NCBI GenBank assembly: GCA_964565945.1
Contig: CAZMGY010000018.1
Coordinates: 39,297-71,296, forward strand
DNA from: an uncultured bacterium
Lineage (GTDB): Bacteria; GCA-001730085
DNA length: 32,000 nt
Reading direction: 5' to 3'
Part shown: positions 1-31,616 of the stretch, piece after piece
How positions within the stretch are numbered: the stretch's first letter is position 1
How the letters are laid out: every line of letters starts with the position of its first letter
Position numbers and translations under genes: made by a program
The notes under the pieces: generated by a model
Database searches by the model: none
What the model was told of the DNA's origin: nothing
The model's input: only the letters and a program-made list of their open reading frames with translations

Positions 1-890
1 TGAATCCGCGCACCCAGTTGTAAAAACCTGTTTTGAAAGCTTCCAACATATGAGACAATCCAAATTTTTTCTCACGCTGAGTTAACTTGCCTTGATGAGA
101 GCGCATAATAACATCGTAAAGCTTGGAATTTATATCCCCTTCGACAGCCACCTGATTTTGTTTTAAAACACGTAAACGACGCAAAACTTCTTTGCTCATA
201 TCACTGGCATTGATGGTATTTTTACCTGATATTCTCTTGGCGCCATCCAATGTAAGAACACGGTCAAAATCTTCTTTGCGATATTGGGTGGTGACCAATG
301 CATGCTCGACAGCTTTACCCATAGAATCATAGATGTAATCGTTGAATTCCTCTAGGGCCGTACGGTTTCCGTACATATCAAATTTTGAATTAAGCTTATG
401 AGTCACTTGTTCAAAAAGATTGTATTTAAAATCAAATTCCGAAGACGCCTCAACCAAGAATTTACCAGTCAATTCTCGTCCTTCCAAATCAAGCATCGCA
501 GTCCCATCTTCATAGGCGCGTACACGGTAATTATAGATATATTGTTCACGACCTTTGAGACGGCCTGTTAGTTCATCATAGATGTTAGCACTCTCCTCTT
601 CTTTGGTTAAACCTTGAATCGTATATCGTTTTTGCGCAACATCATAAAGAAAATTGGTTCCTGTTTGTGTCATTTTGTTGGACTGGCGTCCATCGGTATA
701 ATAGGTGTAATGCGTAGCTAAGGCACGTCGAGTAGCCATATTATTCGTATCGGGATACTCCCATCGACGATCACTTAAAAGACGACCATCTTCACGATAC
801 ACACGGTCAAAAGTTGTGGTTTGTTTTTTCGATAAATAATCAATTTCGTGACTATGACTAAGGCGCAGGTTATCGTTGTATCCCATAATG
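1..890 (-). repeat. YD-type repeat block 5, continuing beyond the window edge.
   Basis: Translated motifs: RVYREDGRLLSDRRWEY, HYTYYTDGRQSN, NIYDELTGRLKGREQY, AYEDGTAMLDLEGRELTG, KFDMYGNRTALEEFNDYIYDSMGKAV. Confidence 0.6.
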
Positions 891-3800
891 CGCTTGGTAT
901 TCTCGCTTTGAGAAAAGCCATTTAAGAGAGCGTCCTGATCGATCACGAGCGTATCACCATCCAGTCTTTTAGGCAACTTACCATTGAGAAGATTTGTGCT
1001 ACGATTTTTTTGATATTCTTGTTTGGTAACATGAATCGGCATACCACGGTAATCGAATTTCTCAAAATGTTGCACAGATAACCTTGTATTTCCTTTTAAA
1101 TGAATGGCAGAAAAAAACCCTTCCATAGCGGCCACACGTTTATGAGAATTAGAAATCCTGGCATAATCTAAGCTGGCAATGTTAAGTTCGTAAGGACCAA
1201 TAATCGAAACGAGGGCTTGGAATTTGTTTGCAATTAGCACCAAAGCCGTATTGGCATTTTTAATAGCGTCTTCAGGCACGGTTAAGGCCTCTTCATTGAT
1301 CATTTTAGCTAAAACATTGGCTTCCTCCGTCGATAAAACGCCATTTTTGTTACGATCGGATAAGGCTAAACGAAATTCGGCTAACACATCGACCACTTGA
1401 GGTTGTTCTTTGACAATTCGTTGCATAATCTTAATTTTGTCGACATCAAGACTTTGTTGAACCGGAATACCAGTAGGATTGCTTGCCGACACAGGATTCA
1501 ATTTATTAATGATTAGCTCTAAAGTGATTTCGGGGCGAATGACAAAGCCTTGAGCAGCGCGATCTCTAAGGTTATAAATGTAATTACCAAACAAGCTATC
1601 CAAAAAGGCATTTTTGTCAGCGTTGCTCAAACCATCAAACGTCATCATCCATGCGCTAAAAGCCGCTTTCACACCCTGAACTTCAGGATAATCTTGACCA
1701 GTGAGAATACCACGAATATTTTGAAGATCTTGAGCTGTGGCATTATTAACTGCTTTAAGGGTTCTTTGCAGGTCTTTTAAACGAACAGCAAAGCGATCTA
1801 ACTGCCCTTGCTTAGGATTGGTGTAATCAGAGCTAATCAAAAAGTACTTCTCAAGGATTTTTCGTGCTTTCTGAACTTTCCAGGTAACCACTTGCATATC
1901 GTCATGAGAAGTTTTACCTAAATCTGTTCCTTGCGCTAAAAACTTTGTTTTATAAATATCTAAATAAGCACCCTCGTTCATAACCATTACGTATTCATTA
2001 ACTTTTCTTTTAAAGCGATAGTCTAGGCTGTTTTTGCTGTAACTCAATGTTTTCCATAGAGCATCTTCGACATCATCCGCAAAGTCGAGCTTGGCTTTAA
2101 ATTCTGCTTCAGTATCATCTAAAGCATCTGCACTCCAGGTGGTGTAGGGCAAATCCATATCATAAAAATCAATCAAACCAGCTGGAAGCAAGTGCTTAAG
2201 TGGACTTACACCCACAGGTAATTCATTAGAGCCACTGTTCAAATTAAGACGAATTTCTTTAACACTATTATCGTAAAAAAATTCTTTGACTGTGGTTTCT
2301 GTCAACGCGTAGTTGTTTTCTCCAAATCGATACTTGGATGTCGTTGCGGAGTCCCAAGTGACCTGACCATCATTGTCATATGTCCGTTGACTTTTGATTT
2401 GCGTTTCATCCTTGTAATACGCACCACCTTCTAAAGGCACATCCTTTAACTGACCCCATTTGTCATATTTTCTAGATAATGATGTCGACGAAGTAACAAG
2501 GCCGGTGTTGTCACCACCAGTTTGAGTTGCCTGGTCATAGTCTTCGTAATAAAAGGCATAGTAGAGCACCTTACCAGTTGTTCCTGTCACTTGACCCGCT
2601 TCGTTCTTAATAGCTTCTAGAAAAATACCATCCAATACGGTTCCATCTGCACGTTTGAGCCCAATGGTTTGATCTGGACGAATAAAATAACTGACTTGAC
2701 CATCCTTAATCATATATTTGCCAATCTGTGCTGGGGGTTCTATCTCTGTCTTTGCTAAAATAGAACCCCCAGCCACACTAAAAGCGTCATCTAAGTGCAA
2801 TACAATGGGATTGCTGGCTTCATCTTTAAGAGTCAATTGATCAACATCAAACCGATCTTCACGAACCTCTAGAACATTGGAACCAGTGTTATCATAACGG
2901 TAGTTACGCAAAATATTATGGACTTTATTTTTTTTAGCATAATCAGTTTTTTCAACCTTAATAAACTTCTTGCCATAAGAATTAGTTCCTTTTTCCATGC
3001 TAGCCAACAAATTACCATTGGCATCATAGGCCCTTTCTTGAATAACATAGTTCTTATAAAAAATATTCATTTGACTCGATGTGCGACTTAAACCTAGAGC
3101 ATTGCTATGCTCGGGATCACTTGAAAATTCTGGAATCGTAAAATCGAGCTTGTCTTTGTCGATAGCAAACCACATCACATTATCGGTGCGACTACCGTTA
3201 TCCACACGGTCTTCACGTTTTTTAATAAGGCGTCCATTTTGATCATATCCCATATTCCATGTATATTTGAGAGATACATTCCCTTTAGAATCAAAATTCT
3301 TGGTGTTTTCAGCAATTTTTTGTCCCAAACGGTTGTATTCGATACCTGAATAATGGGTTTGGCTAACCGCATCACCCTTATCAACAAAGTCATTGAAAGA
3401 CACTAGTCGACCATCGCGATCATAAAGCATATCGTTGCGAATTAGGGATTGCGCTACACCCCCTACTTTTTCTTCTTTTTCGATCGAAATATTTTGCCCT
3501 AGTGTGTTATAAATCATTTTTTTCACGAAAGTAGAAAAAGACTTCGCAGAGCTATTGTATCCATTCTCACGGTAACTGGTGATACGTCCCAATAAATCGT
3601 ACTGAGTATCTTTACGAATGGTTTCGATGCGAATATTAGGTGCCGAACTATCACTCACTAACTCAAAGTAACCAAGATTTTGTCCAGCTGTGTTGTAGTT
3701 AATATTTGATCGTGAACTATAAATGGTTTTATTGAGTGGATTATTAAACGAATCGCGACCTTGCTCATAATTGACTTCGTTATAGGCTGTGTTGCGTCCT

Positions 3801-6800
3801 GATGAATCATAAGTTAAAGCTTGCCATATACGTGTTTTGTTCAAATCGGGTGCATCTGTCGAGCGTGTGATCTCTTCGAAGGATTGTGTGCGTCCAGCGA
3901 CATCGTAGCGCATATTTTGGCGTTGTGTCACAGTTAGTTTTTCAAGCAACGAGGCATCTACTTTAAGGTATTTTTTGCTTGAGCGATCATAATCAAGATT
4001 TTGACGAATAATGTTAAAAATACTTCCTTTATAATGCGCAAACGTATCAGTTAAAGTCATTTTTGTAAAATTCGAAAGCTCCTCAAAAGCATTAAGAACT
4101 TTTCGTTCACCATTAATGTAGCCATTGTTTTCTAATTCGGTCCAAAGCATTGCTTTTTGTGCGACTGTCAAATCAAGCGCATCAAAAACGGATGCATCAA
4201 GTTTACCTTTAAATTCAGCGTTCAAATAGTTAAGATATTCGGTCACAACACTGCGTTGATTAGAAGAAATAGTTGCTTTTTGATGCTTGCTGATATCTTG
4301 ATAAACAAACTTAAGTCCGTCTTTATAAATAATACCTCCGTTAACAAGGTTTGTTAATTCTATTTTCGAGAATTTAAACAAATTGACCTCATATTGTTTA
4401 ATAATCACACTTTTTTGCTCAGAAACGTCCTGATAGGCCTCGACGCGTCCTAAAGCATCATAAGTCATGCCAGTTCTTAAGGTTAAAACATCTAAATCAG
4501 GCTTGTCGTCGCTGTTGGTACGCTCTCGATAGCCCGTTAGCTGTCCACCCCAGTTATAAATCATATCTGATCTTTGCACCAAAGTCCGTTGTTTAGGCGA
4601 CTGCGAATTATACTGTTCTTCGATATAGGAACTATTCTGACCCAGGGCATTGTAGACCATGTTGCTACGAATATGGGTTTCTTTGCTATCAAACTCTAGA
4701 CCAACACCTAGTTTATGGTTCACATCAACGTATCCCAAGGTTTTGCTTTCTTCGTTGTAAATGATATTGATTCGCGTATTCATTTCTAAGATATAAGCAT
4801 CATTGGCCACAAATTCAGGAACTTTTTGACCATAGGCATCACGAACAAAATCTCCTGAACTATGTGTTTTCTTGAAAAAGATATCTGGTCCAAGTTGAGA
4901 ATGCCAACGTCCATAAACAATTTTGCGTGTCTCTGGATCCGCTGAATCATAGTAATAAACTGGATAAGATAGAGAATCTGTTCTTGTTGCATTGATGCTT
5001 GCCATCGAACCATCAGCTAAGTAAAGCTGTGCACCCTTTTCATCCTTAAGGTTCAAAACTCCAAGAACTTCTTTCATAACAATATTATGATCAGTGTCTT
5101 TATACAATTTAAGACCATTAATTACTTCGACCGTCAAATCTCTAGGATCAAACTCTGCTTGTCCAGACTCGCTGAATTCACCGTTATAAGTGAATAAATC
5201 TACATCTGTGTCTAACAAATCGCCGTAAATAGCTTCTTTAAGCACATTGTTTTCGATGTAGTACAGATCCTCACTTTGATCATTCTTAAGAATCTGATCT
5301 TCACGATAATAATCAAAATAGTAAGGCTGATTGCGATCATATTGATCTTCGCTATAGGTTTTGAACTCTCCCGTTTGCAAAGGGTTACCATCGGCATCAA
5401 TATTGTAAGGATTGTTGTTGGTTTGATCTTGATACGAAGCCATCTGCCCCAATGAGTTATAGGTAACAAAACGTCTTTTTGTTTCTTTGTAGTTATTTAG
5501 CAATCCTTTAATTTGATCTTTTTTATATTGAAATTTTTGGAACAACAGAACGTTCTGAATGTTAGCTGCCGACAATCTGCTTCCGCTATCGTTGATGTAA
5601 AGATCCGACGCCATTAGCTTTTGACGTGTTAAAGGATCTGGAGAATCATAGATATGTTGAGAAAAAGATTGTGCAAAGCTTAATTTTTTTTGAACCGCAT
5701 ATAATCCTTTGAGAATCTCTCCATCTTTGCCATAAAGAGTCTGCGCTTTGCCAAAAACATCATAAAGTTTTTGAGCTGGATCCCACATGTAATAACCTTC
5801 TTCTTCGGTCATAACACGCTCAAATGAGGATGAAGATGCAATAGCATCCATAATGGCCTGCTTCATTTCTTCCACTGATTGATAAGTTCCGTTTGGGTAG
5901 CTGTCCAAAAGTAATTGATTAAGGTCATAAAATACGCCATCAACTTTGATACGGCCCATTTTGAAAATCACACCTTGGCTCACTTGTGTTGTTTTGAGCT
6001 TAATCCGATCTGTGATTTGGCCCAATTCATCTTCAATTTCAAGCACCTCACCCTTAATCAGTTTAGCTTTTTTCTCCGCCGTATAAGTATCCCAGTTGGC
6101 CGGAAGCTCATACAATTGTTCCACTTCATTCGTAAATTCACCCCCTTCGTGAATCAGATCATCATAGGCAATTTGTTGACCAAAACGGTTGTAACGTGTG
6201 TTAGTTCGCTCGGTTGTTGTTATCTGTTGAGTTTGATCGTTTTTAACAAACTGCACATAACCAAGAACATAGCCTTGTGAATCGTAAGTTGTACCCTTAC
6301 GAACAGTATGAGTGAGTTCGTTGATAGTCAAAGGCTTGCTCACTGTTTGTAGGTTTAAATTTTTACTAACACCGCCTCGCATAACTCTTAATGTTTTTTG
6401 CTCTAACAAAAGTTTTTTCTCATCTGGGGTTAAATCATCAAAGGAAAGAGAGCCATCTTCAGAAATGTTTTCGTAGTCATATAAGCTTTGCTGAACAGTA
6501 CCATCATCCGTTTTACGGTTGGTTTCGGTGTAAGAAACTTCTTGACCAAAACCGTTGTAACGAATCATTTGTTTTTCTTTACGCTGAATCGTTGCATCCA
6601 CTTTGTTGTTCGAAATCTCGGTGAAGCTCTCAATTTGACCAAAAGAGTTATAGCTAACATTTTCACGGCGTGTAAAATTCTTTTCTTGAATTTTTTTCTT
6701 AATCGACTTACGAATATAGCCCATATAAACACTGCTTGTTTCGATATATTTATCAATGAACTTAACAATAACACCATCATTGGCAGGTTCTGAAGGATCC

Positions 6801-9800
6801 TTTTTAATCAAAAAGTCTAATTCTGAACCTATCGAAGCTTCGACAGAACTCGAAGCTGAAGCTAAAGATTGCAAACGGCTAACGGTGTTTTGATAACGAG
6901 TGAATAATATATTCATTTCTTGATCACTAGCGAGTTCTCGACGTTTGTAGTTAGCTTCAATGCCTTTTAACTTTAGGTCTGGTTTTGCACCAAGCACTTC
7001 GGGAGAATCCACGGCTCCAATCCAATCGGTATGATGTTGGTTGATCGACTGAGCAAGTGTTCGAATATTATCGTTCAATTGCATTGAATCTAGGGACAGA
7101 TTCATCACGGACAATTCCTTGGCAAAATAATCTGCAATAGAATCCGAGCTAAGCTCCAAAATGGCTTTAGATTTTGTCAAACATTCTGTGATATCACCAT
7201 CAACCTTGCTAGACGACTCAGTGAGCAAACGGTTACGCTGTTGGTAAATCGAATCTGAACTCGGTTTATTCGATTCTGTGTAAGGCTCATAATTATTCGT
7301 TTCATCATCGTCAGTCATGATGTACAGCTTAACAAAGTTATTGTGTGCGGTTGGCAACATGTCGGTGTAATCATCATTAACATAATTATGAACCTCCTTT
7401 TTAATATTATTGGTAACATTTGTTTTAATAGCTTCGACAGCTGCACGAATCTTCATAGATGCAATGTATCTTTCCTGATCATTAGAAGCGCTTTGATGCG
7501 CATTCAAAAGACTTCTCCAATTATAAGTACCTGTCGATGCCCCAATGCTCAAGGTTCCATGATTTAAGGTCAGCACTGCTAATTGCGCATTGGTTAATGA
7601 AGTTAAATCAGCAATACTCACATGATCTAATTGATTAACAAGGGTTAAGCGATTAGCAGCCGTTGGTGATGCCAAATAGGCATTCACGCTGGCATTGAAC
7701 TGCCCGCGGGTCACATTTTGATTTTGATCAATCGCATTAAGACCACTTTCGATAAGACCACTTCTGATACGTTGAGATTCTTCGGAATAAATGGCATTGA
7801 ACAAGGATGTATCATCATAATTCTTGTTAGTATAAGTGCGATCGCCATTAAATCGTGACCAACCCGCCTTATCGATAATATTATTAAATGCGAATGTTCC
7901 TGCCCCTGCATCATCGTACTGTCTAAGACCAAAAAAGTCTCCACGTGTTTCCCAATAATCATAGGCATCTGAAAAATACTGATCGTTAACATGCGTCCTA
8001 ATTCCGTTAACAATAGAACCCTGCCCCATTGAACCAAGAGTGTTGTTGGAGAGTGTATTATCAAAGGCAGTTTCGTAGTAAGTGCGATAGTCGGCCAAAT
8101 CTACATTTCCCCGATTAATACGATCCTGAGCAGCATTACGAGCCCTGCTTATAAGGTCATAACGTTGAAGTTCCTCAGAGATAAAATTATTCACAATGGC
8201 AATGTTGGAAAAATTGTCCGCCACTTGAGTTGCTCCATAAGCTGATGCATGCTCCACTTGCTCAATAAAAGTATGAATATCATTGGCTTCAGGAGCAGCG
8301 CTCGTGTAATTGTAAAGGTTTTCTGTTACTCCAGCCTTTGTACTTGCACGTGATGCAGAAATATCCCCTTGAGGAGCAGGTGTAACAACCCGATCGGTGA
8401 TCAAAGATCCCATAAGGGCTTCGAGGCTTTGATCTCTTGCTTGACCATCAGCTAAGTAGGAATCATTGGTTTTTACATTCATTTGATTTGTGATGAACTG
8501 ATTCGTAACATCCCGAATGGCCGTAAATTTAGCACGCGCATTATTACGATTCGCAATCGCTGTATCCGCAGCTATTTTTTGTGATCCAACAAGTGCTTCA
8601 TCGGCAGAAACACCTTTAACGGCCATTTCTTTCAGAAGACTCATATTGGCTTTGATCGATTCTATGATCAAACCAGCAAAATCACGTATTTGATTGGCCG
8701 CTGCACGTCGAGATTGTTGCAAAGTGGTCGAACCTGAGTTATTGTCCATAATCGTTTGCGCAGCATCGTAAAGTCCTTTGTAGTCCACATAAGCATCGTT
8801 TTCTTCTTTGATTTTAAGAGCATTAATAATTCTTTGTTTCGATACACTGGCAATCGCTCGAGAAATATGAAAACCAGGTTTTGTTTGAAATGATGCAGGT
8901 CGATTTCCATAAGGTGAAAAGGCAGGTACTTGAAAATCAGCAGGATTGGGTGTAGCGTAGTTGGGATCATAGATATCAAGAATGCTATCGGCTTGATTTG
9001 CAAAATGAGTCGCAAATCCAGTTGCGTTTAAAACTCGTAAACGAGCAAGCTGAGTATCAATCACATCTTTCAAAGCTTTATCAGCATCTCCCGCATCCGC
9101 ATTGTAATTATTCTGAATCAAAGGCTTGTAAGCAGGAATGGCTTTATCAATATTGTTAATGATCCAATCACTATGACCATTCATTGATTCTGTCACATCC
9201 ATGATGCCAGAGGTATGAAGTAAGACCTTCTTGCGAAATGCAGTTTGAATATCATCATAAGAATCGTTTTGCTCATCAAATGCCAGGATCATTAAAACGG
9301 CATTTTTTTTCTGAATATCATCAGCAGTAACAGCATCTTGATACATTTGACGCAAATTATAGGTTTGTGTATCTGATGCAAGTTTTTCTTGAAAAATAAA
9401 ATGGGTTGGTAAATCAGACAGATTCGGACTTGTCGATGGATCGGCATCTTCGATGCTCACCATCGTGGCAGAACGGTCTAAATCCACAAGTGTAAGATTA
9501 TTCACTAAATTGCTTAAAAAAGATTTGTACTCGCCATCGGGAAGATCTGTGTAATTAACGTGTGCCCTTGTAAGATTGAAGTTATCCCTGTCAGGATCTT
9601 CCCCATCCAAGTAAGCTCGTAAGAAGAGTTTCGCATGATTGATTAAATTAGAGGCATTCATATGAATATCTTGAACCCAAACCTCTTCCAAGTCAGTAAT
9701 ATTGTCATCGGGAATCCCAGAGCGAACCTCTTGTGAAATAATTTTGACAATGTCTTGCGCTTCTCGACGAACTAAGGCGGCTTGGACTTGTTTTTTGGCC

Positions 9801-12800
9801 TCACCATAGCTCAAATTTGGTACTGAATCATAGTCAATGGTTCCTTCGAAAGCTTGTGCTGCATTGTATTGATCGACCGCAAATCCACGTAAAAGTGTAT
9901 CGCGAATATTAAAATTTGGTGTGAAATAGTTGATTTGAATATTGTAATCATTAACGGGTAGTCCTCCATCAATAAATGCATTAAACTCTGTATTTCCTAC
10001 GCTTTCATAGGCACGCGTTTGATAGTTGACTGTTTCGAACAAGCTGTCATTGAACAAGTTTGTCGTTCTCTCATAGCTTCGCGCATAATCACCTGCAACC
10101 AGTGTGTCTAGATCGGTAGGAAAAAGATTTTGATTGCTAGATCTCAACGTCGCAGTCACATTTTGTGTTGGATCGTTAAAGACCCTAATAGCCGCATCTT
10201 TGAAAGATTGTAAAAACACATTGGTTGCAGCCATCGCGTCAGCCTTAACCCCAGCATCCATGCCTTCGAACATATTGAAAACATCATGCAAATTAGCTCC
10301 TGCAGCAATTCGGTTGAAGGAGTGATCGCGCAATCTATCTGTTTGGGTGCGAATAGCGCTCATTTGCTCCACTTGAGAATCCATGTTGGCATGCATATCA
10401 GCATATTTTTTAAAAAAAGTGGCAATCATTTGTTCATAGTAACCAGCCAACACCTCCATGCGTTTAATGCCATACGAATACACATCATGCTTAATACGAT
10501 AGGCAACATAATCCGCTGTCGGAGGAGAAGCACTCACTGCAGACAAAGCAGATAAAGCCGCTGTCATTTCTGTGGACGCATTTTGAAGAGTTGTGTTCGT
10601 TGCGTTGGTTTTATCGTAATCATTAGCATTCAATGTTGCAAACACATCTGGTGTAAAATATTCATAAACAGCGTTAGATGGAGTGGATAAATCTAGGTTT
10701 TTAACTTTTTTAATGGTCGGATTAGCCCATTTTTGCAATTGAATGATCAACGCTGTGTTTTGAGAACGCGCAGAAAATGTTACACCAGCCGCCTTATTAC
10801 GCAATAAATCCATCTCTTCGTCTAACAAACGATCAATATCTGCAAAAAGACTCCCCATAGGCTCAAGCAGTTCGTACTTCATCATTTGCACCTTATGCTC
10901 TTCGACCAAACGGCTTAAACCTGTTTGCTGATTGATAATGTCTTGAATTTGATCATTACTGATTTGATTAATCCGGCTTATGTATTGATTATTTTCGCTT
11001 TGAACTGTGTGTAACGCATCGATATGTTGCTGCAATTCATATTGACGCTCAGCATAACGGTTTCTTTTGGTTTTTTCAGCATGATACTTACTCATAATGA
11101 TTTGTAAGTTTTCACGCATATTATTAGATAAAGATGCCGAAATGGTGCGTTCAAAATGAAAGGCTTTATAGTAATGGATACCCTTAACTTCCTCCGTCGC
11201 AGTGACCATATCGCAGATGACTTTGGATCCCTGAAGCAATTTGTATTTTTGGACAGCCGAAAAGGAATCTATCAAACCACCTACTCGCCAAAAATTATTC
11301 CATTCGGCTTGCGTCATCGACGTTGGCACCTCAAATTGAGCCTTCCAATCATTGCGCAAACCAATAAATGTCTGCGAATCCGTCAATTGACCATGTTCCG
11401 CGAGACCAAAATATTCTTCCCAACGCTCTCTTTCTCCACTGTTAGCTGAGTCTTTATCGGGCAATAAAAAGGTATTGAGAGACACTTCTGATTTAGGTGC
11501 CAGCTGAAAGCTGCCTTGGACTGGAATTTGAACACGTGCAGCTCGGTCTCTTAATTCGGGTAAAGCAACACTGTGTGTTTGATCCCATAGATTAAGGATT
11601 TTGGTTTTGTCACTAACCGAATAGGCAAACTCTAGCAACTTAGATGCCAAAATGGTTCGTGTGGCTATATTCCACACAATATGGGTATCCTTATTCGGAT
11701 CAATTTTGATTAGGTTGTGGACAATCATTTGCTCGATCGTTGCATTCGATAACAAATACGCGCTGCCTAACTCTATACGTGTCATTTCACGAGCTGATTT
11801 TCCAAGAAGGATCAATTGTTCCTCGGATGTTAACGTATTGTAACCAAACGAAGGACTTAACCAAAAAGCCCTCCACTTGCTTTGATAACTAACCTCTTCT
11901 CCGTCTTCATGCACAACAAATTCGGCTTCAGTATCCCATCCTTCGGGAGCCTCAAATAAGCCTTCGAGTTCGTTACCAAACAGTTTTTCAGTGATTTCAA
12001 TCTTGGAAACAATTGCATTGATACGGTCGTTGATAAGAACTTTTTCTTCGAAGAGTTCGGCAATTCGCTCATCATCAACAGGCGATTCTAAGGTATTAAG
12101 CGTTAGATTGAGATTGGCCAAGGCACGACGTTCACTGGCTAGGTTTTCTTCCAAGCTCTTCTTATAGTTATTAATAACATTTTTCATAAGAGAGTTGGAA
12201 GGAATCGCAGATTTGTCAGGATTTTCTTCATTCTTGGCCTGAACGATGTTGTAAATCACTTCGCGCATCACATTGCGTGTTTCTTCGCTTAATTCACCCG
12301 ATTCTTCCAATAATTCGGAAATAATACGATACTCAGAACCCGAAGGAATCTCGATTTTCGTTTTTGTGATTACTTTTTCCTTTTGGTTATTCTTAAGTAC
12401 CGCAAAAATAACTGCTTTTTGATCAGCTCTTTCATCAAGGGTAAATTCAACGGCTTCTTTCATTTGCAAAAATTTAGTTAACAATAAACCCTGAGCTAAC
12501 AAATAACCTTTGGCCTCCAATTCATCCCAAAGCTGTTGTGAATTAAGTCCTAAAGCATCTAAGTCATTCAAACCAATCACATCATTTTTTTTATTTTTCA
12601 AAAAGTTATAAATTTCTTCAGTATGCTCCGAGAAAGGTGCTTTAAGGTTAAGATCTTGATGGCGCAACAAACGGTTCATTTTATCGGTGTAAACCCCAAC
12701 ATTTTTGATGTAATTTTTTGCCACTAAATCAGCCCACATGGCTTTTTTCTCAGCATTTGTCCCCGTAACGGTCGAAAAGTCCTCCATCGAGATCAAGCCC

Positions 12801-15800
12801 CGAGACATCGCCAACACATCCGATTTTTTAAAGCGATTCATCATCGAAGACGAGGCCACAGAAAATTTGATTGTTTCTTCTCCCAGAACTACAGAGCCCC
12901 CACTCAACACAAGTGCTTGCTGTTCTTCGTTAAGCTGGCTGAAACCATAGTGATCACTATTCCAAAAAGCATCCCACTTGGAACGATAATCCACGTCGGC
13001 GCCATCTTCATTCACGGTATAAGACGTTTCCCAACCTGTTGGAATGCGGAAAAATGTTCCTAACTCTTCACTTGTGCTACCAATTTTGTAATCTTCTTGA
13101 TCATACTCGAGTTCTTGGCCAAAGCTGTTATAAGCGATGTTATAACGAACCGTAATCTCTTTCATATTAGGAGATGCGTTTTTAACCCGAGATTCCTGAT
13201 ACGTCAAAAGCTTACCAAACTTATTGTACTGAATGTTTGTCCGTTCAGAGTGTGTCACGTCATCCACATCAAAGGCAGTTTCGTAATCAACAACAAAGTC
13301 ATCTTGGATCGCATTGATCATGCCCGTGGTAAAATCTTTATCATCAATAAGACTGTCTTGATTGAGGTCGAAGCGAGCCCATAACGCAGGATTCACATTA
13401 GCTAGAAACTCATAAAGCATTAATTTCTTAATCAAGCTCAAGTCATAATCAAATTCATTCAACGTTCTAGCTCCAAATAGTCTGCGGAAACGAACTTCTC
13501 CCAAAGCTTGCTTCATATCTTTAACCGAAATAATTTCTTTGTCTGGAAAGTATCTTCCGTACTCCACGGCGCCTAATGCCTCAATAGCTTGCGAGCGTGT
13601 GACTTCTGTGGCAAATCCAAACAAACGGGTGTAATGGTTGTAGCCAAGATCTTGAGTTACTTTTTGAGCAAGCTTAACAAAATCATCAACCGAAAAGGTC
13701 GAAGCCGTTTCAAGCTTTTCGATGATCGATAACAGATAATTTTTTAGGGATTGGCCAGTTAAAGAATACTTTTGAATCGTTTGACCTTGTTTTTGTGATT
13801 TTTCAATGTATTGTTTTTCGCGACCAAAAACATCATAATAAATTCGTTTTTTCTCTTTGATGGTGATCGAATCTGGCGATGATGTGCTCACACTGCTCTC
13901 TTTAGTGTATCTTTCCTGGCCTAGTTTATTATAGATCGTGTCGTTACGATGGACAATATCAGTCACATCAATCCGGGCTTCGCTCAATACCGACTTGGAT
14001 TTGATCTCGACCACAGCATCTCCCTTCTCATCTTTTAAACCAGTGCGAATGGTTGTATTATCATCAGCTGTAATGGCCTTTAAAAGGGCATTCAAATCTT
14101 TTATATCTGATTCCTTAATGGTCAAAAGACCATCTTTCTCCAAAAAGAAATGTTGCTCTGGTATCAACTGGGTTTTGACATCTTGAGTTGGAGTTTTGTA
14201 ACGCATAACTTGAGCTTGTCCAATACGACGCGAAGCAATTGAACGTTTTTTAAGTAGTCCCGTTGTGTCATAGTGCATATCTCTCACATAATCGATGGTC
14301 AATAAATCAGGCTTACTGAGATTTTTTTTGGTTTCGGTATAACCGATAAGCTGAGACAAATCATTATAGGTGGCTCCAATCCGTGTATTAAATTCTCGTG
14401 TGTCAATCACCTCTTGCAACTGAATACCTTTGCGAGAGGCTAAAACACCCCCCGCAGCAAGAGAATCCACAAAACTGACGCGTGCCTGTTGAGAATTACT
14501 CCATAGCTGAACAACAAAATCAATGTTTTTCTCGCTGTAATCAAACTGATTCAGTTTAGAGCGCAATTCGCTTTCTGATGTCACATTCCAATGAAAAAGG
14601 TCCTTATTGCTGGGATCGCTAACAAGAACCTGTTGTTCAACCGAATTGAGTGATGCTAGCAAGCTTGCATCCTCAAATGAAGCTCTTCCAATTTGACTTC
14701 CTAACAATTCAGTGAAGCCTGTGGCCTGAGCATGAGGCATTTGATCAAGCTCATTCTTGGTATAATAACGTAAGTTTCCAGTAGCTTTAGCCACAACAGA
14801 CTTAACCTGATCACCATCGACATAAAGCGCTTGATCTTGAGCGCTCATTTCGTTCCACTCCTCTTGAGTCATATAGAAAGATGTAAGACCTGTATGGTCA
14901 TCATTAATATCTACTTTGTGAAGCAATTGCAACAGAGAAACTTTTTGGGGTGTACCATAGGCCTTTTTCTTCTCAAAATCCAAATTCGCCCACTCTGACT
15001 CCGAGAAAAAATCAAAAGTTCCTGGAGAATCGTTTTTTTCACTCATCACCAAAACGCTGCCATTTTGCAAAATTCGTTGAAACGATGAATCTTGATCATT
15101 GACTTTTTCAAGTTCATCTCTTAAGGAATTATAAAAGATTTCTGTAACTTGATAGCGATCAAAATAAGTCGTTATATCTAAAGAATTTCTAGCATAAGGC
15201 AAAGCTGAACCTTCAACGCGAATAAGCTGATGAGCCGTCCCTGCAATAGTAACACTTTGCCCAAACAAAAGCCGTTCTTTATCTTCAGATGCTAAACCAT
15301 CAAACACACCACCTTTGATCCAAAAGGTACTCCAGTTACCTTGAACCCTCGATGCGCGCATATCGAAGGCCGCCTGCCACGCACTACGATCGCGATCAAA
15401 GCCTGTTTTCAAATCGTTAACAGCGACTTGATTATAGTTGGCAAAACCAAAAAAGCGCTTTGTTTGCCCATGCTTTGTTTTCGATTCCAAAAATCCTTTT
15501 TCTTGGCCCTCTCCTGTGTAAAAAATCGATTTACGCTCGACATGTGTTTCAACCCCTTGGTTATCTGTTACATCTTCGACATAGCTTTCAACTTGAACAT
15601 TGGAGTTATAAGTCGTTTTTCGACGTAAAATTGTGGTCGTATCGTTGATCTCGATGCTATCATTCACATAACCTAAAGTGAACGCTCCCAAATCATAATC
15701 GTCAAAAAAAGAGCCTATGTTCCTCACATAGGTGTTCAGCAAGTCTCCATCATTGGGGAAAAAAGTTTCGTTTTGAGCCACGGTGGCAATATTATCTGCA

Positions 15801-16696
15801 TTATCTGCTAAAGCAGCCAATACAGCAACTCTTTGCGTTCCGCTCAAATTTGTATCAATCAGATTTTTGAACCAGCTTAAGGCCTGTGAACGGATATCCA
15901 CAGCTTCGTCATGATAAATTTTAGCAATATATTCCTGAGTTAACAGGGCTTTGAGCCATGCATTATTTTCAACAATTTCCCTATTAACGCGTTCAACAGT
16001 GCTGACACCCTTTTTTTGGACTGTTTGACGATACGAATTCTGGCGGTCAAATTTTTCATATGTGATATCTGTCATTACTGTGATTGTCGTTAAATCGGGC
16101 TGAGCTGTTGAGCGTTTAATTTCATCATAGGCATTAATATTGCCCGTTTCGTTGTATTGAGTATTGGTGCGCAATAATCCTTCTTGAATGTCTTGCAACA
16201 CCTTATTATCCAACTGATCATAGGCCAATCGATGCGTAACATCGAGATACTCAAACGTTTGACCAAGACGATTGTACTCAATAGCACTTCTCGAAACACG
16301 TTCTGATTTTTCAAGGCTCTGAGTTTGCCCTTTAATCGTTTGTGAGCCTTTAACATTTTCGAATTGGGTGTAACCCGTCATTTGCTCAAATTGATTATAA
16401 GTGATATGGCTACGTGTTTTGCTGGTTTCAGAGCTACCTTTAGCTGCTATTTTGCTACTTTCACGATAAGCGACTTCTTGATTCAAATCATTACGTACAA
16501 TCGAAAAGCGGGATGTGCTGTTAATGTTGTTCAGTACATTTGTTTGTTGATAGCTCACCCCTGCGCTAGTCAATAAGTCCAAATCATTTTGATCGATCAC
16601 CTCATCTTTGTTTAAATCAAAATGTTTATCATAAGCGCGACGTTGCTCAATCATGTCTTTGATCATCATTTCGGATTCATAATAGTTGAAGTTCAT
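1..16696 (-). CDS. Giant secreted YD/RHS-type repeat protein, distal part. The 3' end lies beyond the window. 5,565 codons from ATG 16696; the frame is open from 16753. Most likely the same gene as 16784-22390.
   Basis: Hand translation of the minus frame with codon first bases at coordinates = 1 mod 3 shows no stop from 16753 down to position 2. I re-verified the 60-nt lines starting 16681, 14041, 13321, 13021, 12961, 12001, 11881, 10981, 10021, 9001, 8041, 6001, 4021, 2041, 1321 and 1. Dozens of YD-type repeats are present, e.g. NDMLYDRDGRLVSF (~3420), TGMTYDALGRVEAY (~4450), ENVSYNSFGQIESF (~6650). Every track ORF in this span is short and in another frame. Confidence 0.85.
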   Translation of the reverse strand, partial: MNFNYYESEMMIKDMIEQRRAYDKHFDLNKDEVIDQNDLDLLTSAGVSYQQTNVLNNINSTSRFSIVRNDLNQEVAYRESSKIAAKGSSETSKTRSHITYNQFEQMTGYTQFENVKGSQTIKGQTQSLEKSERVSRSAIEYNRLGQTFEYLDVTHRLAYDQLDNKVLQDIQEGLLRTNTQYNETGNINAYDEIKRSTAQPDLTTITVMTDITYEKFDRQNSYRQTVQKKGVSTVERVNREIVENNAWLKALLTQEYIAKIYHDEAVDIRSQALSWFKNLIDTNLSGTQRVAVLAALADNADNIATVAQNETFFPNDGDLLNTYVRNIGSFFDDYDLGAFTLGYVNDSIEINDTTTILRRKTTYNSNVQVESYVEDVTDNQGVETHVERKSIFYTGEGQEKGFLESKTKHGQTKRFFGFANYNQVAVNDLKTGFDRDRSAWQAAFDMRASRVQGNWSTFWIKGGVFDGLASEDKERLLFGQSVTIAGTAHQLIRVEGSALPYARNSLDITTYFDRYQVTEIFYNSLRDELEKVNDQDSSFQRILQNGSVLVMSEKNDSPGTFDFFSESEWANLDFEKKKAYGTPQKVSLLQLLHKVDINDDHTGLTSFYMTQEEWNEMSAQDQALYVDGDQVKSVVAKATGNLRYYTKNELDQMPHAQATGFTELLGSQIGRASFEDASLLASLNSVEQQVLVSDPSNKDLFHWNVTSESELRSKLNQFDYSEKNIDFVVQLWSNSQQARVSFVDSLAAGGVLASRKGIQLQEVIDTREFNTRIGATYNDLSQLIGYTETKKNLSKPDLLTIDYVRDMHYDTTGLLKKRSIASRRIGQAQVMRYKTPTQDVKTQLIPEQHFFLEKDGLLTIKESDIKDLNALLKAITADDNTTIRTGLKDEKGDAVVEIKSKSVLSEARIDVTDIVHRNDTIYNKLGQERYTKESSVSTSSPDSITIKEKKRIYYDVFGREKQYIEKSQKQGQTIQKYSLTGQSLKNYLLSIIEKLETASTFSVDDFVKLAQKVTQDLGYNHYTRLFGFATEVTRSQAIEALGAVEYGRYFPDKEIISVKDMKQALGEVRFRRLFGARTLNEFDYDLSLIKKLMLYEFLANVNPALWARFDLNQDSLIDDKDFTTGMINAIQDDFVVDYETAFDVDDVTHSERTNIQYNKFGKLLTYQESRVKNASPNMKEITVRYNIAYNSFGQELEYDQEDYKIGSTSEELGTFFRIPTGWETSYTVNEDGADVDYRSKWDAFWNSDHYGFSQLNEEQQALVLSGGSVVLGEETIKFSVASSSMMNRFKKSDVLAMSRGLISMEDFSTVTGTNAEKKAMWADLVAKNYIKNVGVYTDKMNRLLRHQDLNLKAPFSEHTEEIYNFLKNKKNDVIGLNDLDALGLNSQQLWDELEAKGYLLAQGLLLTKFLQMKEAVEFTLDERADQKAVIFAVLKNNQKEKVITKTKIEIPSGSEYRIISELLEESGELSEETRNVMREVIYNIVQAKNEENPDKSAIPSNSLMKNVINNYKKSLEENLASERRALANLNLTLNTLESPVDDERIAELFEEKVLINDRINAIVSKIEITEKLFGNELEGLFEAPEGWDTEAEFVVHEDGEEVSYQSKWRAFWLSPSFGYNTLTSEEQLILLGKSAREMTRIELGSAYLLSNATIEQMIVHNLIKIDPNKDTHIVWNIATRTILASKLLEFAYSVSDKTKILNLWDQTHSVALPELRDRAARVQIPVQGSFQLAPKSEVSLNTFLLPDKDSANSGERERWEEYFGLAEHGQLTDSQTFIGLRNDWKAQFEVPTSMTQAEWNNFWRVGGLIDSFSAVQKYKLLQGSKVICDMVTATEEVKGIHYYKAFHFERTISASLSNNMRENLQIIMSKYHAEKTKRNRYAERQYELQQHIDALHTVQSENNQYISRINQISNDQIQDIINQQTGLSRLVEEHKVQMMKYELLEPMGSLFADIDRLLDEEMDLLRNKAAGVTFSARSQNTALIIQLQKWANPTIKKVKNLDLSTPSNAVYEYFTPDVFATLNANDYDKTNATNTTLQNASTEMTAALSALSAVSASPPTADYVAYRIKHDVYSYGIKRMEVLAGYYEQMIATFFKKYADMHANMDSQVEQMSAIRTQTDRLRDHSFNRIAAGANLHDVFNMFEGMDAGVKADAMAATNVFLQSFKDAAIRVFNDPTQNVTATLRSSNQNLFPTDLDTLVAGDYARSYERTTNLFNDSLFETVNYQTRAYESVGNTEFNAFIDGGLPVNDYNIQINYFTPNFNIRDTLLRGFAVDQYNAAQAFEGTIDYDSVPNLSYGEAKKQVQAALVRREAQDIVKIISQEVRSGIPDDNITDLEEVWVQDIHMNASNLINHAKLFLRAYLDGEDPDRDNFNLTRAHVNYTDLPDGEYKSFLSNLVNNLTLVDLDRSATMVSIEDADPSTSPNLSDLPTHFIFQEKLASDTQTYNLRQMYQDAVTADDIQKKNAVLMILAFDEQNDSYDDIQTAFRKKVLLHTSGIMDVTESMNGHSDWIINNIDKAIPAYKPLIQNNYNADAGDADKALKDVIDTQLARLRVLNATGFATHFANQADSILDIYDPNYATPNPADFQVPAFSPYGNRPASFQTKPGFHISRAIASVSKQRIINALKIKEENDAYVDYKGLYDAAQTIMDNNSGSTTLQQSRRAAANQIRDFAGLIIESIKANMSLLKEMAVKGVSADEALVGSQKIAADTAIANRNNARAKFTAIRDVTNQFITNQMNVKTNDSYLADGQARDQSLEALMGSLITDRVVTPAPQGDISASRASTKAGVTENLYNYTSAAPEANDIHTFIEQVEHASAYGATQVADNFSNIAIVNNFISEELQRYDLISRARNAAQDRINRGNVDLADYRTYYETAFDNTLSNNTLGSMGQGSIVNGIRTHVNDQYFSDAYDYWETRGDFFGLRQYDDAGAGTFAFNNIIDKAGWSRFNGDRTYTNKNYDDTSLFNAIYSEESQRIRSGLIESGLNAIDQNQNVTRGQFNASVNAYLASPTAANRLTLVNQLDHVSIADLTSLTNAQLAVLTLNHGTLSIGASTGTYNWRSLLNAHQSASNDQERYIASMKIRAAVEAIKTNVTNNIKKEVHNYVNDDYTDMLPTAHNNFVKLYIMTDDDETNNYEPYTESNKPSSDSIYQQRNRLLTESSSKVDGDITECLTKSKAILELSSDSIADYFAKELSVMNLSLDSMQLNDNIRTLAQSINQHHTDWIGAVDSPEVLGAKPDLKLKGIEANYKRRELASDQEMNILFTRYQNTVSRLQSLASASSSVEASIGSELDFLIKKDPSEPANDGVIVKFIDKYIETSSVYMGYIRKSIKKKIQEKNFTRRENVSYNSFGQIESFTEISNNKVDATIQRKEKQMIRYNGFGQEVSYTETNRKTDDGTVQQSLYDYENISEDGSLSFDDLTPDEKKLLLEQKTLRVMRGGVSKNLNLQTVSKPLTINELTHTVRKGTTYDSQGYVLGYVQFVKNDQTQQITTTERTNTRYNRFGQQIAYDDLIHEGGEFTNEVEQLYELPANWDTYTAEKKAKLIKGEVLEIEDELGQITDRIKLKTTQVSQGVIFKMGRIKVDGVFYDLNQLLLDSYPNGTYQSVEEMKQAIMDAIASSSSFERVMTEEEGYYMWDPAQKLYDVFGKAQTLYGKDGEILKGLYAVQKKLSFAQSFSQHIYDSPDPLTRQKLMASDLYINDSGSRLSAANIQNVLLFQKFQYKKDQIKGLLNNYKETKRRFVTYNSLGQMASYQDQTNNNPYNIDADGNPLQTGEFKTYSEDQYDRNQPYYFDYYREDQILKNDQSEDLYYIENNVLKEAIYGDLLDTDVDLFTYNGEFSESGQAEFDPRDLTVEVINGLKLYKDTDHNIVMKEVLGVLNLKDEKGAQLYLADGSMASINATRTDSLSYPVYYYDSADPETRKIVYGRWHSQLGPDIFFKKTHSSGDFVRDAYGQKVPEFVANDAYILEMNTRINIIYNEESKTLGYVDVNHKLGVGLEFDSKETHIRSNMVYNALGQNSSYIEEQYNSQSPKQRTLVQRSDMIYNWGGQLTGYRERTNSDDKPDLDVLTLRTGMTYDALGRVEAYQDVSEQKSVIIKQYEVNLFKFSKIELTNLVNGGIIYKDGLKFVYQDISKHQKATISSNQRSVVTEYLNYLNAEFKGKLDASVFDALDLTVAQKAMLWTELENNGYINGERKVLNAFEELSNFTKMTLTDTFAHYKGSIFNIIRQNLDYDRSSKKYLKVDASLLEKLTVTQRQNMRYDVAGRTQSFEEITRSTDAPDLNKTRIWQALTYDSSGRNTAYNEVNYEQGRDSFNNPLNKTIYSSRSNINYNTAGQNLGYFELVSDSSAPNIRIETIRKDTQYDLLGRITSYRENGYNSSAKSFSTFVKKMIYNTLGQNISIEKEEKVGGVAQSLIRNDMLYDRDGRLVSFNDFVDKGDAVSQTHYSGIEYNRLGQKIAENTKNFDSKGNVSLKYTWNMGYDQNGRLIKKREDRVDNGSRTDNVMWFAIDKDKLDFTIPEFSSDPEHSNALGLSRTSSQMNIFYKNYVIQERAYDANGNLLASMEKGTNSYGKKFIKVEKTDYAKKNKVHNILRNYRYDNTGSNVLEVREDRFDVDQLTLKDEASNPIVLHLDDAFSVAGGSILAKTEIEPPAQIGKYMIKDGQVSYFIRPDQTIGLKRADGTVLDGIFLEAIKNEAGQVTGTTGKVLYYAFYYEDYDQATQTGGDNTGLVTSSTSLSRKYDKWGQLKDVPLEGGAYYKDETQIKSQRTYDNDGQVTWDSATTSKYRFGENNYALTETTVKEFFYDNSVKEIRLNLNSGSNELPVGVSPLKHLLPAGLIDFYDMDLPYTTWSADALDDTEAEFKAKLDFADDVEDALWKTLSYSKNSLDYRFKRKVNEYVMVMNEGAYLDIYKTKFLAQGTDLGKTSHDDMQVVTWKVQKARKILEKYFLISSDYTNPKQGQLDRFAVRLKDLQRTLKAVNNATAQDLQNIRGILTGQDYPEVQGVKAAFSAWMMTFDGLSNADKNAFLDSLFGNYIYNLRDRAAQGFVIRPEITLELIINKLNPVSASNPTGIPVQQSLDVDKIKIMQRIVKEQPQVVDVLAEFRLALSDRNKNGVLSTEEANVLAKMINEEALTVPEDAIKNANTALVLIANKFQALVSIIGPYELNIASLDYARISNSHKRVAAMEGFFSAIHLKGNTRLSVQHFEKFDYRGMPIHVTKQEYQKNRSTNLLNGKLPKRLDGDTLVIDQDALLNGFSQSENTKRIMGYNDNLRLSHSHEIDYLSKKQTTTFDRVYREDGRLLSDRRWEYPDTNNMATRRALATHYTYYTDGRQSNKMTQTGTNFLYDVAQKRYTIQGLTKEEESANIYDELTGRLKGREQYIYNYRVRAYEDGTAMLDLEGRELTGKFLVEASSEFDFKYNLFEQVTHKLNSKFDMYGNRTALEEFNDYIYDSMGKAVEHALVTTQYRKEDFDRVLTLDGAKRISGKNTINASDMSKEVLRRLRVLKQNQVAVEGDINSKLYDVIMRSHQGKLTQREKKFGLSHMLEAFKTGFYNWVRGF
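2330..6690 (-). repeat. YD/YN-G-Q repeat block 4, the densest and most regular, with inserts at ~5500-6080 and ~3960-4400.
   Basis: Translated motifs: ENVSYNSFGQIESF, MIRYNGFGQEVSY, TRYNRFGQQIAY, FVTYNSLGQMASY, NMVYNALGQNSSY, DMIYNWGGQLTGYRERTNSDDKPDL, GMTYDALGRVEAY, NMRYDVAGRTQSFEEITRSTDAPDL, ALTYDSSGRNTAY, NINYNTAGQNLGY, DTQYDLLGRITSY, DMLYDRDGRLVSF, GIEYNRLGQKIA, NMGYDQNGRLI, RAYDANGNLL, YRYDNTGSNV, RTYDNDGQVTW. Confidence 0.75.
11780..11950 (-). repeat. Trp-rich module, copy 2, 1,101 nt downstream of copy 1 in the coding direction.
   Basis: Hand-verified translation: FEAPEGWDTEAEFVVHEDGEEVSYQSKWRAFWLSPSFGYNTLTSEEQLILLGKS. It aligns position for position with copy 1. Confidence 0.7.
12880..13050 (-). 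repeat. Trp-rich module, copy 1 (P-x-G-W-E-T...EDG..V.Y.SKW.AFW...G...L..E.Q).
   Basis: Hand-verified translation: FRIPTGWETSYTVNEDGADVDYRSKWDAFWNSDHYGFSQLNEEQQALVLSGGS. Confidence 0.7.
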
Positions 16697-16700
16697 ATCA
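13090..16700 (-). repeat. YD/YN-G-Q repeat block 3, interrupted by non-repeat stretches.
   Basis: Translated motifs: SAIEYNRLGQTFEY, TQYNETGNINAYDEIKRSTAQPDL, GATYNDLSQLIGYTETKKNLSKPDL, RDMHYDTTGLL, DTIYNKLGQERY, RIYYDVFGREKQY, NIQYNKFGKLLTYQE, IAYNSFGQELEY. Confidence 0.65.
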
Positions 16701-16753
16701 GTCAGAGAGCTTCCCAGCTCAACGTCACGTTCATCATAAGAAAACTTCAAACC

Positions 16754-16812
16754 ATCAAGATAAACACCCTCCCAGGTTTTTAGCTTAACACTTGTTCCCA
16801 AAGCAACACCAT
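16754..16812 (-). other. Local frame disruption inside the giant gene: two in-frame stops bridged by an open +1 frame.
   Basis: The main frame reads ...KVDTSDGVAFGNKC*AKNLGGCLS*WFEVSYDERD, with TAA at 16786-16784 and TGA at 16756-16754. The frame with codon first bases = 0 mod 3 is open from 16821 to 16705. It reads LGTSVKLKTWEGVYLDGLKF, which joins DGVA and SYDERDVELG smoothly. The shift points coincide with a T4 run (plus-strand A4, 16799-16802) and the AAGTTTCT stretch near 16739-16745. Confidence 0.8.
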
Positions 16813-22825: not shown

Positions 22826-23434
22826 ATGTTGAAACAATGGATTCGCAAAACTATCATTGGTGTGCTCTGTATTGGAACAATACCCCTCGGGGCTCAAGTA
22901 ACCACAGGTAACAAAGCTCCTAATTTCACCTTAAGCGATGCGAAAGGGCAAAGCCATCAGCTTTCCGACTTTAAGGGTAAAATTGTGGTCTTGGAGTGGA
23001 TCAACTACGACTGCCCTTTTGTTAAAAAACATTACAACACAGGACACATGCAACATCTGCAACGCACATTCACCGAACAAGGTATCATTTGGTTAAGTAT
23101 CAATTCCTCAGCACCTGGCAAACAAGGTCATTTTGACCCCATCACCCTAGCCAAACGAATGGAAAAAACCAAAGTCAATCCTAGTGCCTATCTTTTGGAT
23201 AACGATGGCAAGGTTGGTCGCATGTACAATGCCAAGACAACCCCCCATATGTACATTATCAACAAAAAAGGCACACTAGTATACCAGGGTGCCATTGATG
23301 ATGATCCAGGTGTTTGGGGCAGCGATCCTTACCGTTCCAAGAATTTTGTGCGCATTGTGCTCGATGCCATCATGCACGGACGGCCTTCACCAGTAAAAGA
23401 AACTCCAGCCTATGGTTGTTCGGTGAAATATTAA
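22826..23434 (+). CDS. Secreted thioredoxin-fold protein (redoxin / AhpC-TSA-like family).
   Basis: Track ORF of 202 aa. It has an N-terminal signal-like segment (KTIIGVLCIGTIPLGAQV), a thioredoxin-fold core (FKGKIVVLEWINYDCPFVKKHY) and a C-terminal YGCSVKY. GGAAG lies upstream of the ATG. Confidence 0.8.
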   Translation: MLKQWIRKTIIGVLCIGTIPLGAQVTTGNKAPNFTLSDAKGQSHQLSDFKGKIVVLEWINYDCPFVKKHYNTGHMQHLQRTFTEQGIIWLSINSSAPGKQGHFDPITLAKRMEKTKVNPSAYLLDNDGKVGRMYNAKTTPHMYIINKKGTLVYQGAIDDDPGVWGSDPYRSKNFVRIVLDAIMHGRPSPVKETPAYGCSVKY

Positions 23435-24253: not shown

Positions 24254-24263
24254 TCAATTCTCC

Positions 24264-24725: not shown

Positions 24726-24829
24726 AACGAGTACCCTTCTATACAGGTTTCAATTTAAATGTCCAAGGTCGAGGTCAGGCTGCTTAACGCAACTATCCAA
24801 AGATGACCTTCAAAATTCATTATATTTTA

Positions 24830-25948: not shown

Positions 25949-26096
25949 CTTATTCTTCCTCTCCTGGCTGACACACAGAAGAAAAAATCGATGAACGCTG
26001 CGCCATCCTATCAATGGTTCGATCGAGCAAAGTTTTGAGCAAGCCTCCTCTCGTTGTTTCCACTTCGGGAAGTTCCAGCATCGTTTTAAATTCCTT

Positions 26097-26825: not shown

Positions 26826-26826
26826 A

Positions 26827-28510: not shown

Positions 28511-28515
28511 TCCCT

Positions 28516-29415: not shown

Positions 29416-29454
29416 ATTTGAGTCCTTTCCTTCATGATTTCCATGCGAAAAGGC

Positions 29455-31563: not shown

Positions 31564-31616
31564 TTCGAACCTCATTTGCTAAAGATCCCAGATCATCTAC
31601 TCCAGATGAAACAAAC

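Follow-up and report, generated by a model that had tools for sequence, protein, structure and literature searches.

The DNA analyzed here is a stretch of 32,000 nucleotides from an uncultured bacterium (GTDB lineage Bacteria; GCA-001730085; GenBank assembly GCA_964565945.1, contig CAZMGY010000018.1, positions 39,297 to 71,296 of the forward strand) and is referred to as the window throughout. The first part of a giant gene lies on its minus strand, and within the encoded protein a core of about 1,500 residues was delimited that resembles no other part of the protein and for which a single 95-residue relative was recovered from the databases searched. The core fills most of a gap between two clusters of repeat units resembling the YD repeat (YD-like units), and this gap segment is a real, intact, in-frame part of a giant, Sec-exported, nearly cysteine-free protein. 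The segment is unexplained and is not a demonstrated new mechanism. The interpretation preferred below, tentatively and at somewhat less than an even chance, is that the core folds, mainly into alpha-helices, and serves without enzymatic activity as a stalk or interaction platform that loops out of an exported adhesin-like or fibre protein.

The giant gene was read on the minus strand as a single stop-free frame of 7,466 codons (window 2-22399), open at the left end of the window. The GTG start at 22390 is preceded by an AGGAG ribosome-binding site six bases ahead. The window covers the first 7,463 residues of the protein (~40%), the C-terminal ~11,160 residues and the genes beyond lying outside it. 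Residues are numbered in the open reading frame (ORF), such that residue i starts at window position 22399-3(i-1) and the true protein number is i-3. The signal peptide is the only hydrophobic segment with a Kyte-Doolittle hydropathy (KD) above 1.5 (19-mers) across the visible 7,466 residues, and no transmembrane segment follows it in the visible part. A lipoprotein signal (VVSC) was considered and dismissed because basic residues stand ahead of the Cys. The two features are as follows:

2..22390, minus strand: giant gene, visible part (7,463 residues), a stop-free frame with a GTG start at 22390.
22280..22390, minus strand: Sec-type signal peptide, MILDIFAGPLKKYVRVVSCLTVQLFIATSMDVSLAFA/QQ, with a basic n-region, a hydrophobic core and an AFA/QQ cleavage site read from the sequence.

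The full length of the gene was obtained from independent assemblies. Logan contig SRR30621489_1673 (70,832 bp) carries it complete, called at 18,624 aa with no Pfam hit on record for that call, and two 60-kb contigs call it at 16,868 aa, ended by the contig edge. A 249-residue phosphatase adjoining the giant gene was found on 23 contigs of independent sequencing-run assemblies, and the six contigs retrieved were 99.98-100% identical to the window across their overlaps (up to 18.2 kb), a comparison that covers the first ~2,950 residues of the giant gene. Assemblies from over 20 sequencing runs contain near-identical copies, and both the giant gene and its organism are therefore real and within reach. 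Between runs, the first 8.8 kb of the gene held two variable sites only, E1487D and a synonymous change at S947 (window 17939 and 19559), which indicates a nearly clonal population. An exact-match search of metagenome contigs with the 40-mer at the window end found none.

The gap was originally described as a non-repeat core of roughly 2,100 residues inserted between YD blocks, with YD motifs halting near 13090 and restarting near 6650, and these limits were borne out. The peptides quoted in support were found in place (IAYNSFGQELEYDQED at 13138-13091, ENVSYNSFGQIESF at 6664-6623, AAANQIRDF... at 8704-8612 and NRLTLVNQLD... at 7654-7556). A profile hidden Markov model (HMM) of the YD-like units, built iteratively from the protein's own units, placed the end of the preceding unit at residue 3108 (window 13076) and the beginning of the following unit at residue 5228 (window 6718). 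Restricted to residues 3109-5227 (--max, E<=1000), the HMM returned zero domains, and on the flank of equal length (residues 5228-7346) it returned 16 domains and 375 bits. Over all gaps, the Poisson probability of one of at least 2,120 residues was ~1e-3. The features in and around the gap are:

13076..13168, minus strand: last YD-like unit before the gap, NMKEITVRYNIAYNSFGQELEYDQEDYKIGS, residues 3078-3108 (self-trained HMM, independent E-value (i-E) 2.3e-9).
11213..13075, minus strand: modular part of the gap, residues 3109-3729, Glu/Leu-rich (tile-versus-tile blastp and iterated HMMs).
6719..11212, minus strand: unique orphan core, 1,498 aa, residues 3730-5227, with no similarity elsewhere in the protein and no homologues beyond the relative of the next feature.
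8792..9049, minus strand: residues 4451-4536, the one part of the core for which a relative was detected (P0001, E=1.5e-6, 33% identity).
7808..8410, minus strand: residues 4664-4864, a sub-region without predicted helices (DSSP of a low-confidence AlphaFold2 model, in which model residues 515-715 are coil).
6587..6718, minus strand: first YD-like unit after the gap, YIRKSIKKKIQEKNFTRRENVSYNSFGQIESFTEISNNKVDATI, residues 5228-5271 (self-trained HMM, i-E 8.2e-12).

The visible protein has many unit-free gaps, of which this one is the largest. The self-trained HMM found 36 YD-like units in 14 clusters across the visible 7,466 residues, covering ~22% of the visible protein at a mean spacing of 207 residues, with unit-free inserts of ~110-600 residues between clusters and the densest stretches at residues 5872-5994 and 6148-6403. 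The unit consensus is R-x4-Y-[ND]-x2-G-[QR]-x3-[YF]-x-E, and S-[SD]-x-A-P-[DN]-[LI] frequently comes after it. In carrying a hairpin motif of the form x-R-x(4)-Y-[ND]-x-x-G-[QR]-x(3)-[YF]-x-E, the flanking units recall the Rhs/YD proteins (type VI secretion system Rhs effectors such as Tse15, TcB/TcC cocoons and teneurins). The window protein differs from these in that the Pfam RHS_repeat and NCBIfam YD models fail on it (best E=0.87), its 36 units are sparse and clustered, and its visible part has no DPxGL/Rhs-core motif.

The failure of the standard models was general. Three overlapping pieces of the ORF matched no Pfam family at E<=0.01 (RHS_repeat PF05593 and SecA included), and seven shorter pieces gave only noise at E<=10 (RHS_repeat, RDV-p3 and DUF6477). 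The densest YD-like block alone scored E=0.87 and 10.5 bits against RHS_repeat, under the 22-bit cut-off, and NCBIfam at E<=1 returned no YD model (TIGR01643) and only sub-threshold noise (RadA, frr and FevR). The best PDB match of the YD-like profile was the YD repeat of the Rhs effector Tse15 (KKIQYNELGQMISYTD), a weak match (E=0.06) that fits beta-hairpin flanks. By these profile searches the flanking units are YD-like and are not demonstrable members of the RHS/YD family. A continuous, shell-closing repeat array was absent from the visible 7,466 residues, where 14 short clusters stand instead, and the linker modules of the gap are shared with other inserts; the picture of one insert in an otherwise continuous RHS/YD shell was therefore abandoned. 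Tse15 itself is ~1,600 aa long, so that the window protein is more than 10 times longer and its insert of 2.1k residues outsizes a whole Rhs protein. Canonical YD shells do tolerate inserted non-YD domains, an example being the TcB beta-propeller.

The only detectable relative of the YD-like blocks came from a 10.9-kb contig (L088) of JGI metagenome 3300022693 and comprises a protein, P0002, and the ORF lying upstream. P0002 matched the blocks at 27% identity (E=2e-13) and had no Pfam RHS hit of its own. It resembles the window protein in its YD-like unit, down to the S-[SD]-x-A-P-[DN]-[LI] signature that follows the hairpin, and differs from it in that the units form a dense, near-continuous array with short inserts only, in the 3.6k residues visible. 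These two proteins seem to represent a YD-like repeat family of its own, one that escapes current HMMs.

The units on either side of the gap share the hexapeptide YNSFGQ, which is exclusive to them (window 13091-13138 and 6623-6664). At the DNA level they are identical at 16 of 36 positions and draw on different Ser codon families; the two may be anciently related or may have converged. This low DNA identity, together with codon usage in the core that equals that of the rest of the gene, led to the rejection of a recent insertion with duplicated YNSFGQ flanks.

On tile-by-tile comparison the gap resolved into reused linker over ~30% of its length (~620 residues) and an orphan remainder of ~1,500 residues. 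The modular part, residues 3109-3729, consists for ~450 of its 621 residues (~73%) of modules with copies elsewhere in the protein (blastp E 1.7e-13 to 1e-3). The module at 3112-3190 is duplicated at 3477-3553 (E=1.7e-13), that at 3177-3338 has copies at 396-486 and 6038-6134, that at 3531-3633 matches 2568-2661, and that at 3663-3729 matches 2316-2385 (E=1e-8). Its composition, rich in Glu and Leu, resembles that of the other inserts. Residues 3100-3800 had no relative in a word-indexed search of 5.8 billion proteins, and residues 3109-3729 had no Pfam hit. The term non-repeat is thus right for residues 3730-5227 and wrong for residues 3109-3729, and the same division applies to the N/A/D/S/T-rich composition ascribed to the whole gap, which belongs to the core and not to the Glu/Leu-rich linker.

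The core showed no similarity to other tiles of the protein, no significant internal repeat (best E=0.16) and no nucleotide tandem repeats. In composition it departs from the other inserts (chi-square p=6e-10), with more Ala (10.3% vs 5.9%) and Asn (8.7% vs 6.5%) and less Lys (4.3% vs 7.3%) and Glu (4.7% vs 6.4%). Asp stands at 8.3% and Trp at 0.5%, Ser and Thr are abundant, and the net charge is ~-59. Sequence complexity lies in the normal range, at 3.7 bits per 40-residue window, hydrophobic and aromatic residues together make up ~30%, and there is little Pro or Gly. The charge-hydropathy margin is slightly positive, with 71-74% of 60-residue windows on the folded side, a fraction above that of the YD blocks. 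Synonymous codon usage in the core could not be distinguished from that in the rest of the giant gene (p=0.35), which argues that the core is not a recent foreign insertion. The visible ORF holds three Cys residues, one in the signal peptide, Cys3729 at the start of the core (window 11213-11215) and Cys5073 close to its end (window 7181-7183), and a disulfide between the latter two that would bracket the core is conceivable.

Searches for relatives of the core were nearly all negative. The word-indexed search of 5.8 billion proteins found nothing for residues 3730-5230. When residues 3900-5099 were searched exhaustively with HMMER against 1.84 billion representatives, the sole match was P0001, a 95-aa fragment from JGI metagenome 3300042717, which aligns with the island at residues 4451-4536, a Pro-rich loop between helices (...IYDPNYATPNPADF...ISRAIASVSKQRIINALKIKEEND...). 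The 1-kb contig of this fragment (L087) has stop codons or frameshifts in every frame and no YD-like units. No relatives of the core were found among genome contigs or viral contigs, and an alignment of the island with P0001 found none among metagenome contigs. Phages and plasmids searched by tblastn gave none, and PHROGs gave noise only. In the PDB, phmmer with the whole gap and with two tiles returned no hit at E<=10, nor did the island profile return any. The segment accordingly remains, as first proposed, a candidate for undescribed domains, having no Pfam, NCBIfam, PHROGs or PDB match and one 95-residue relative.

A check raised at the outset was whether conservation of the core is independent of that of the YD blocks. 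The relative of the core is without YD units, and the relative of the YD blocks is without the core, P0002 and its contig having no resemblance to residues 3130-5210 of the window protein. These sparse data point to independent conservation on thin evidence, as both relatives are fragments.

Structure prediction, also suggested at the outset together with a Foldseek search, was carried out with AlphaFold2 on the single sequence, without an alignment, for two 1,151-residue tiles spanning the gap (residues 3100-4250 and 4150-5300), and was uninformative. The low-confidence models consist of helix (many of 25-55 residues) and coil, with almost no strands. Foldseek comparison of both models with the PDB gave best E-values of 1.7 and 2.5 at template modelling (TM) scores below 0.1, all to generic helical repeats, and these matches were disregarded; none was significant. 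A flagellin-like or axial-protein-like helical domain, proposed from composition and from "NMSLLKEMAVKG", was rejected, there being no Pfam or PDB support.

On the interpretation given preference here, the protein is a mosaic of helical-looking inserts set between short clusters of beta-hairpin units that are YD-like but non-canonical. The first 621 residues of the gap are built from linker modules as in the other inserts. The ~1,500-residue core is lineage-specific, acidic, rich in Ala, Asn, Asp, Ser and Thr, and probably folded and mainly alpha-helical, and its role would be non-enzymatic, as a long stalk resembling a helical bundle or alpha-solenoid, or as a binding platform. It would be looped out between two YD-like hairpin clusters of a giant extracellular protein of the fibre or adhesin-like kind. 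This interpretation draws on the export signal, the lack of transmembrane segments, a composition typical of exported surface proteins, the long predicted helices and the analogy with inserts of YD shells. Helicity and foldedness are weakly indicated, helicity being plausible on the two AlphaFold2 models, and we infer that the core acts outside the cell in a structural or interaction role and is looped out.

Several points weigh against this interpretation. Both models are unreliable, with a mean predicted local distance difference test (pLDDT) score of 32.3 and 33.6 and a predicted TM (pTM) score of 0.23 and 0.22, and pLDDT is below 50 at nearly all residues of both. The early impression that the region looks helical draws on these two low-confidence models. 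Chou-Fasman propensity and hydrophobic moment did not separate the core from the YD blocks. One 85-residue island is the only part of the core conserved anywhere, the remainder being without an evolutionary sign of constraint. The lack of motifs and HMM hits is compatible with a novel enzyme or toxin, and 60% of the protein, including its C-terminus, lies with the genes beyond outside the window, where an effector domain or clues to secretion could sit.

The core may instead contain a novel domain, or several, with an enzymatic or carbohydrate-binding function, perhaps at residues 4664-4864, that would act on the surface of prey, host or matrix, which we consider unlikely. These ~200 residues are rich in Tyr, Phe, Gly, Asp and Asn and have no predicted helices, and as a lead they may be regarded as a candidate separate, non-helical domain of the core. 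Such a role would suit the retention of the 85-residue island at 33% identity in an unrelated metagenome, and giant proteins of predatory Omnitrophota have been reported with carbohydrate-active folds in unannotated stretches (bioRxiv 10.1101/2023.11.21.568195). HMM, PDB and motif support are, however, all absent, and the model is too poor to interpret. As originally stated, no HExxH and no nucleotide-binding loop was found: among the few motifs searched, HExxH, the P-loop, DPxGL (as DPxG[LWF]), RTX (GGxGxD) and LPxTG were all absent from the visible ORF.

It is similarly improbable that the core is a flexible, mostly unstructured spacer that drifts freely and for this reason has neither homologues nor a confident AlphaFold2 model. 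A pLDDT below 50 nearly throughout, orphan status among 1.84 billion representatives and the polar-rich composition would all agree with such a spacer. Low pLDDT is, however, expected of any single-sequence run, and a drifting spacer sits poorly with normal complexity, a larger share of folded-side windows than in the YD blocks, the proportion of hydrophobic and aromatic residues, the low Pro and Gly content and the long regular helices placed by the models.

A third alternative, that the core is a cargo or effector carried by the YD-like parts, either a toxin or an alpha-helical device for pore formation or translocation analogous to TcA or an alpha pore-forming toxin (alpha-PFT), is also unlikely. 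The YD-like hairpins of the flanks, with an Rhs effector as their best PDB match, the long helices of the low-confidence models and the position of both non-signal cysteines (3729 and 5073) at the start and near the end of the core could each be taken in its favour. A segment of 1,500-2,100 residues is nevertheless far larger than any cargo that YD shells are known to enclose, and it lies at 17-28% of the protein length, whereas Rhs toxins are C-terminal. The DPxGL/RHS-core autoproteolysis motif is absent from the visible ORF, no hydrophobic helix with KD>1.5 occurs beyond the signal peptide, and no TcA/VRP1, ClyA-family, toxin or pore-former match was obtained in Pfam or the PDB (E<=10). A TcA-like module in particular was left unsupported by the searches.

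That the region is made of highly diverged YD repeats or of a common Ig-like or adhesin array is very improbable. Very diverged YD-like units do escape standard HMMs elsewhere in the protein, but the protein's own HMM, which found 16 domains in the equal flank, found none here at E<=1000, no Pfam repeat family (Ig-like, cadherin or FN3), GGxGxD motif or significant internal periodicity was detected, and the models are nearly strand-free. Neither of the trivial identities named in the original prediction was thus found. An assembly artefact, chimera or decaying pseudogene, for which extreme length and orphan status are the only arguments, is extremely improbable given a stop-free frame of 22.4 kb, independent assemblies that call the same gene across and past the region (16,868 and 18,624 aa), DNA identity of 99.98-100% where comparable (first ~2,950 residues) and codon usage in the core that is the same as in the rest of the gene.

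A peroxiredoxin gene (22826-23434, opposite strand) lies between the giant gene and a run of ordinary bacterial housekeeping genes at 23.5-31.6 kb comprising ribBA, ribH, nusB, ftsY, ribD, ribE, a short-chain dehydrogenase, an aminotransferase and two histidine phosphatases. The G+C content at third codon positions (GC3) is 0.34-0.36 in the giant gene and 0.45 in these housekeeping genes (23504-31575), and synonymous codon usage differs between them (p=3e-20), a difference that could stem from horizontal origin or from low-expression codon usage. The best identity of RibBA was 62%, with matches spread across many phyla, and the 90%-identity clusters of the housekeeping proteins have 1-3 members each.

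The histidine-phosphatase genes are in tandem (window 23504-24253 and 24264-24725, minus strand). The upstream one (153 residues) aligns with positions 1-69 of 194 of the Pfam profile only, and as this match is limited to the N-terminal third, it is probably a truncated paralogue. The aminotransferase ORF (24830-26167, minus strand), listed at 445 residues, shares 70 bases with the dehydrogenase gene upstream. In the majority of independent calls it starts later and has 372 residues, with a 43-residue ORF between, and one call gives 438 residues. The riboflavin operon (26827-31575, minus strand) is split by nusB and ftsY, in the order ribBA-ribH-nusB-ftsY-ribD-ribE, and no flavin mononucleotide (FMN) riboswitch or other Rfam family reached its gathering score in the window. 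Retrieved assemblies of the locus mostly begin ~35-175 bp upstream of ribBA (window ~31713), one (L096) reaching ~500 bp further, and these shared starts suggest a repeat or strain-variable junction just upstream of ribBA.

Besides the Rhs/YD proteins, the nearest described counterparts are the giant proteins of Omnitrophota. For these, structure prediction revealed RHS-like antiparallel beta-helix tubules bearing alpha-helices on the outside (West-Roberts et al., bioRxiv 10.1101/2023.11.21.568195), and ~15% of Omnitrophota proteins of at least 10,000 aa are reported to lack any Pfam hit (bioRxiv 10.64898/2026.06.07.730766). The window protein is like them in that its gene exceeds 10,000 codons and is largely devoid of annotated domains, and probably in an alternation of RHS-like beta structure with helices. 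It is unlike the Archaeovorin and Dockerin types, which have numerous transmembrane segments and mostly divergent SecA DEAD-like domains, whereas the visible 40% of the window protein has a signal peptide only and no Pfam hit. No sequence similarity between the Omnitrophota giants and the window protein was detected. The window protein is classed with giant exported repeat-mosaic proteins having lineage-specific inserts, with an orphan segment inside.

Giant bacterial genes are rare, a minority of them are without any recognisable domain, and the 18,624-codon gene described here has no Pfam hit, either in the 7,463 visible residues or on record for its complete call; the flagged region is the part of its protein most resistant to classification. 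A bolder proposal, which we hold to be unlikely, is that the core consists of one or more new domains, unrelated to known folds, giving a specific function such as target recognition or membrane engagement to an undescribed class of giant YD-like mosaic exoproteins, in a bacterial lineage without close sequenced relatives and with the 85-residue island as the functional site. No mechanism is offered so far, and the value of the finding is that of a well-delimited target, isolated in sequence space. Should the core prove to fold into a functional module, a new domain family would be gained, and YD-like hairpin scaffolds would be shown to carry very large looped-out inserts.

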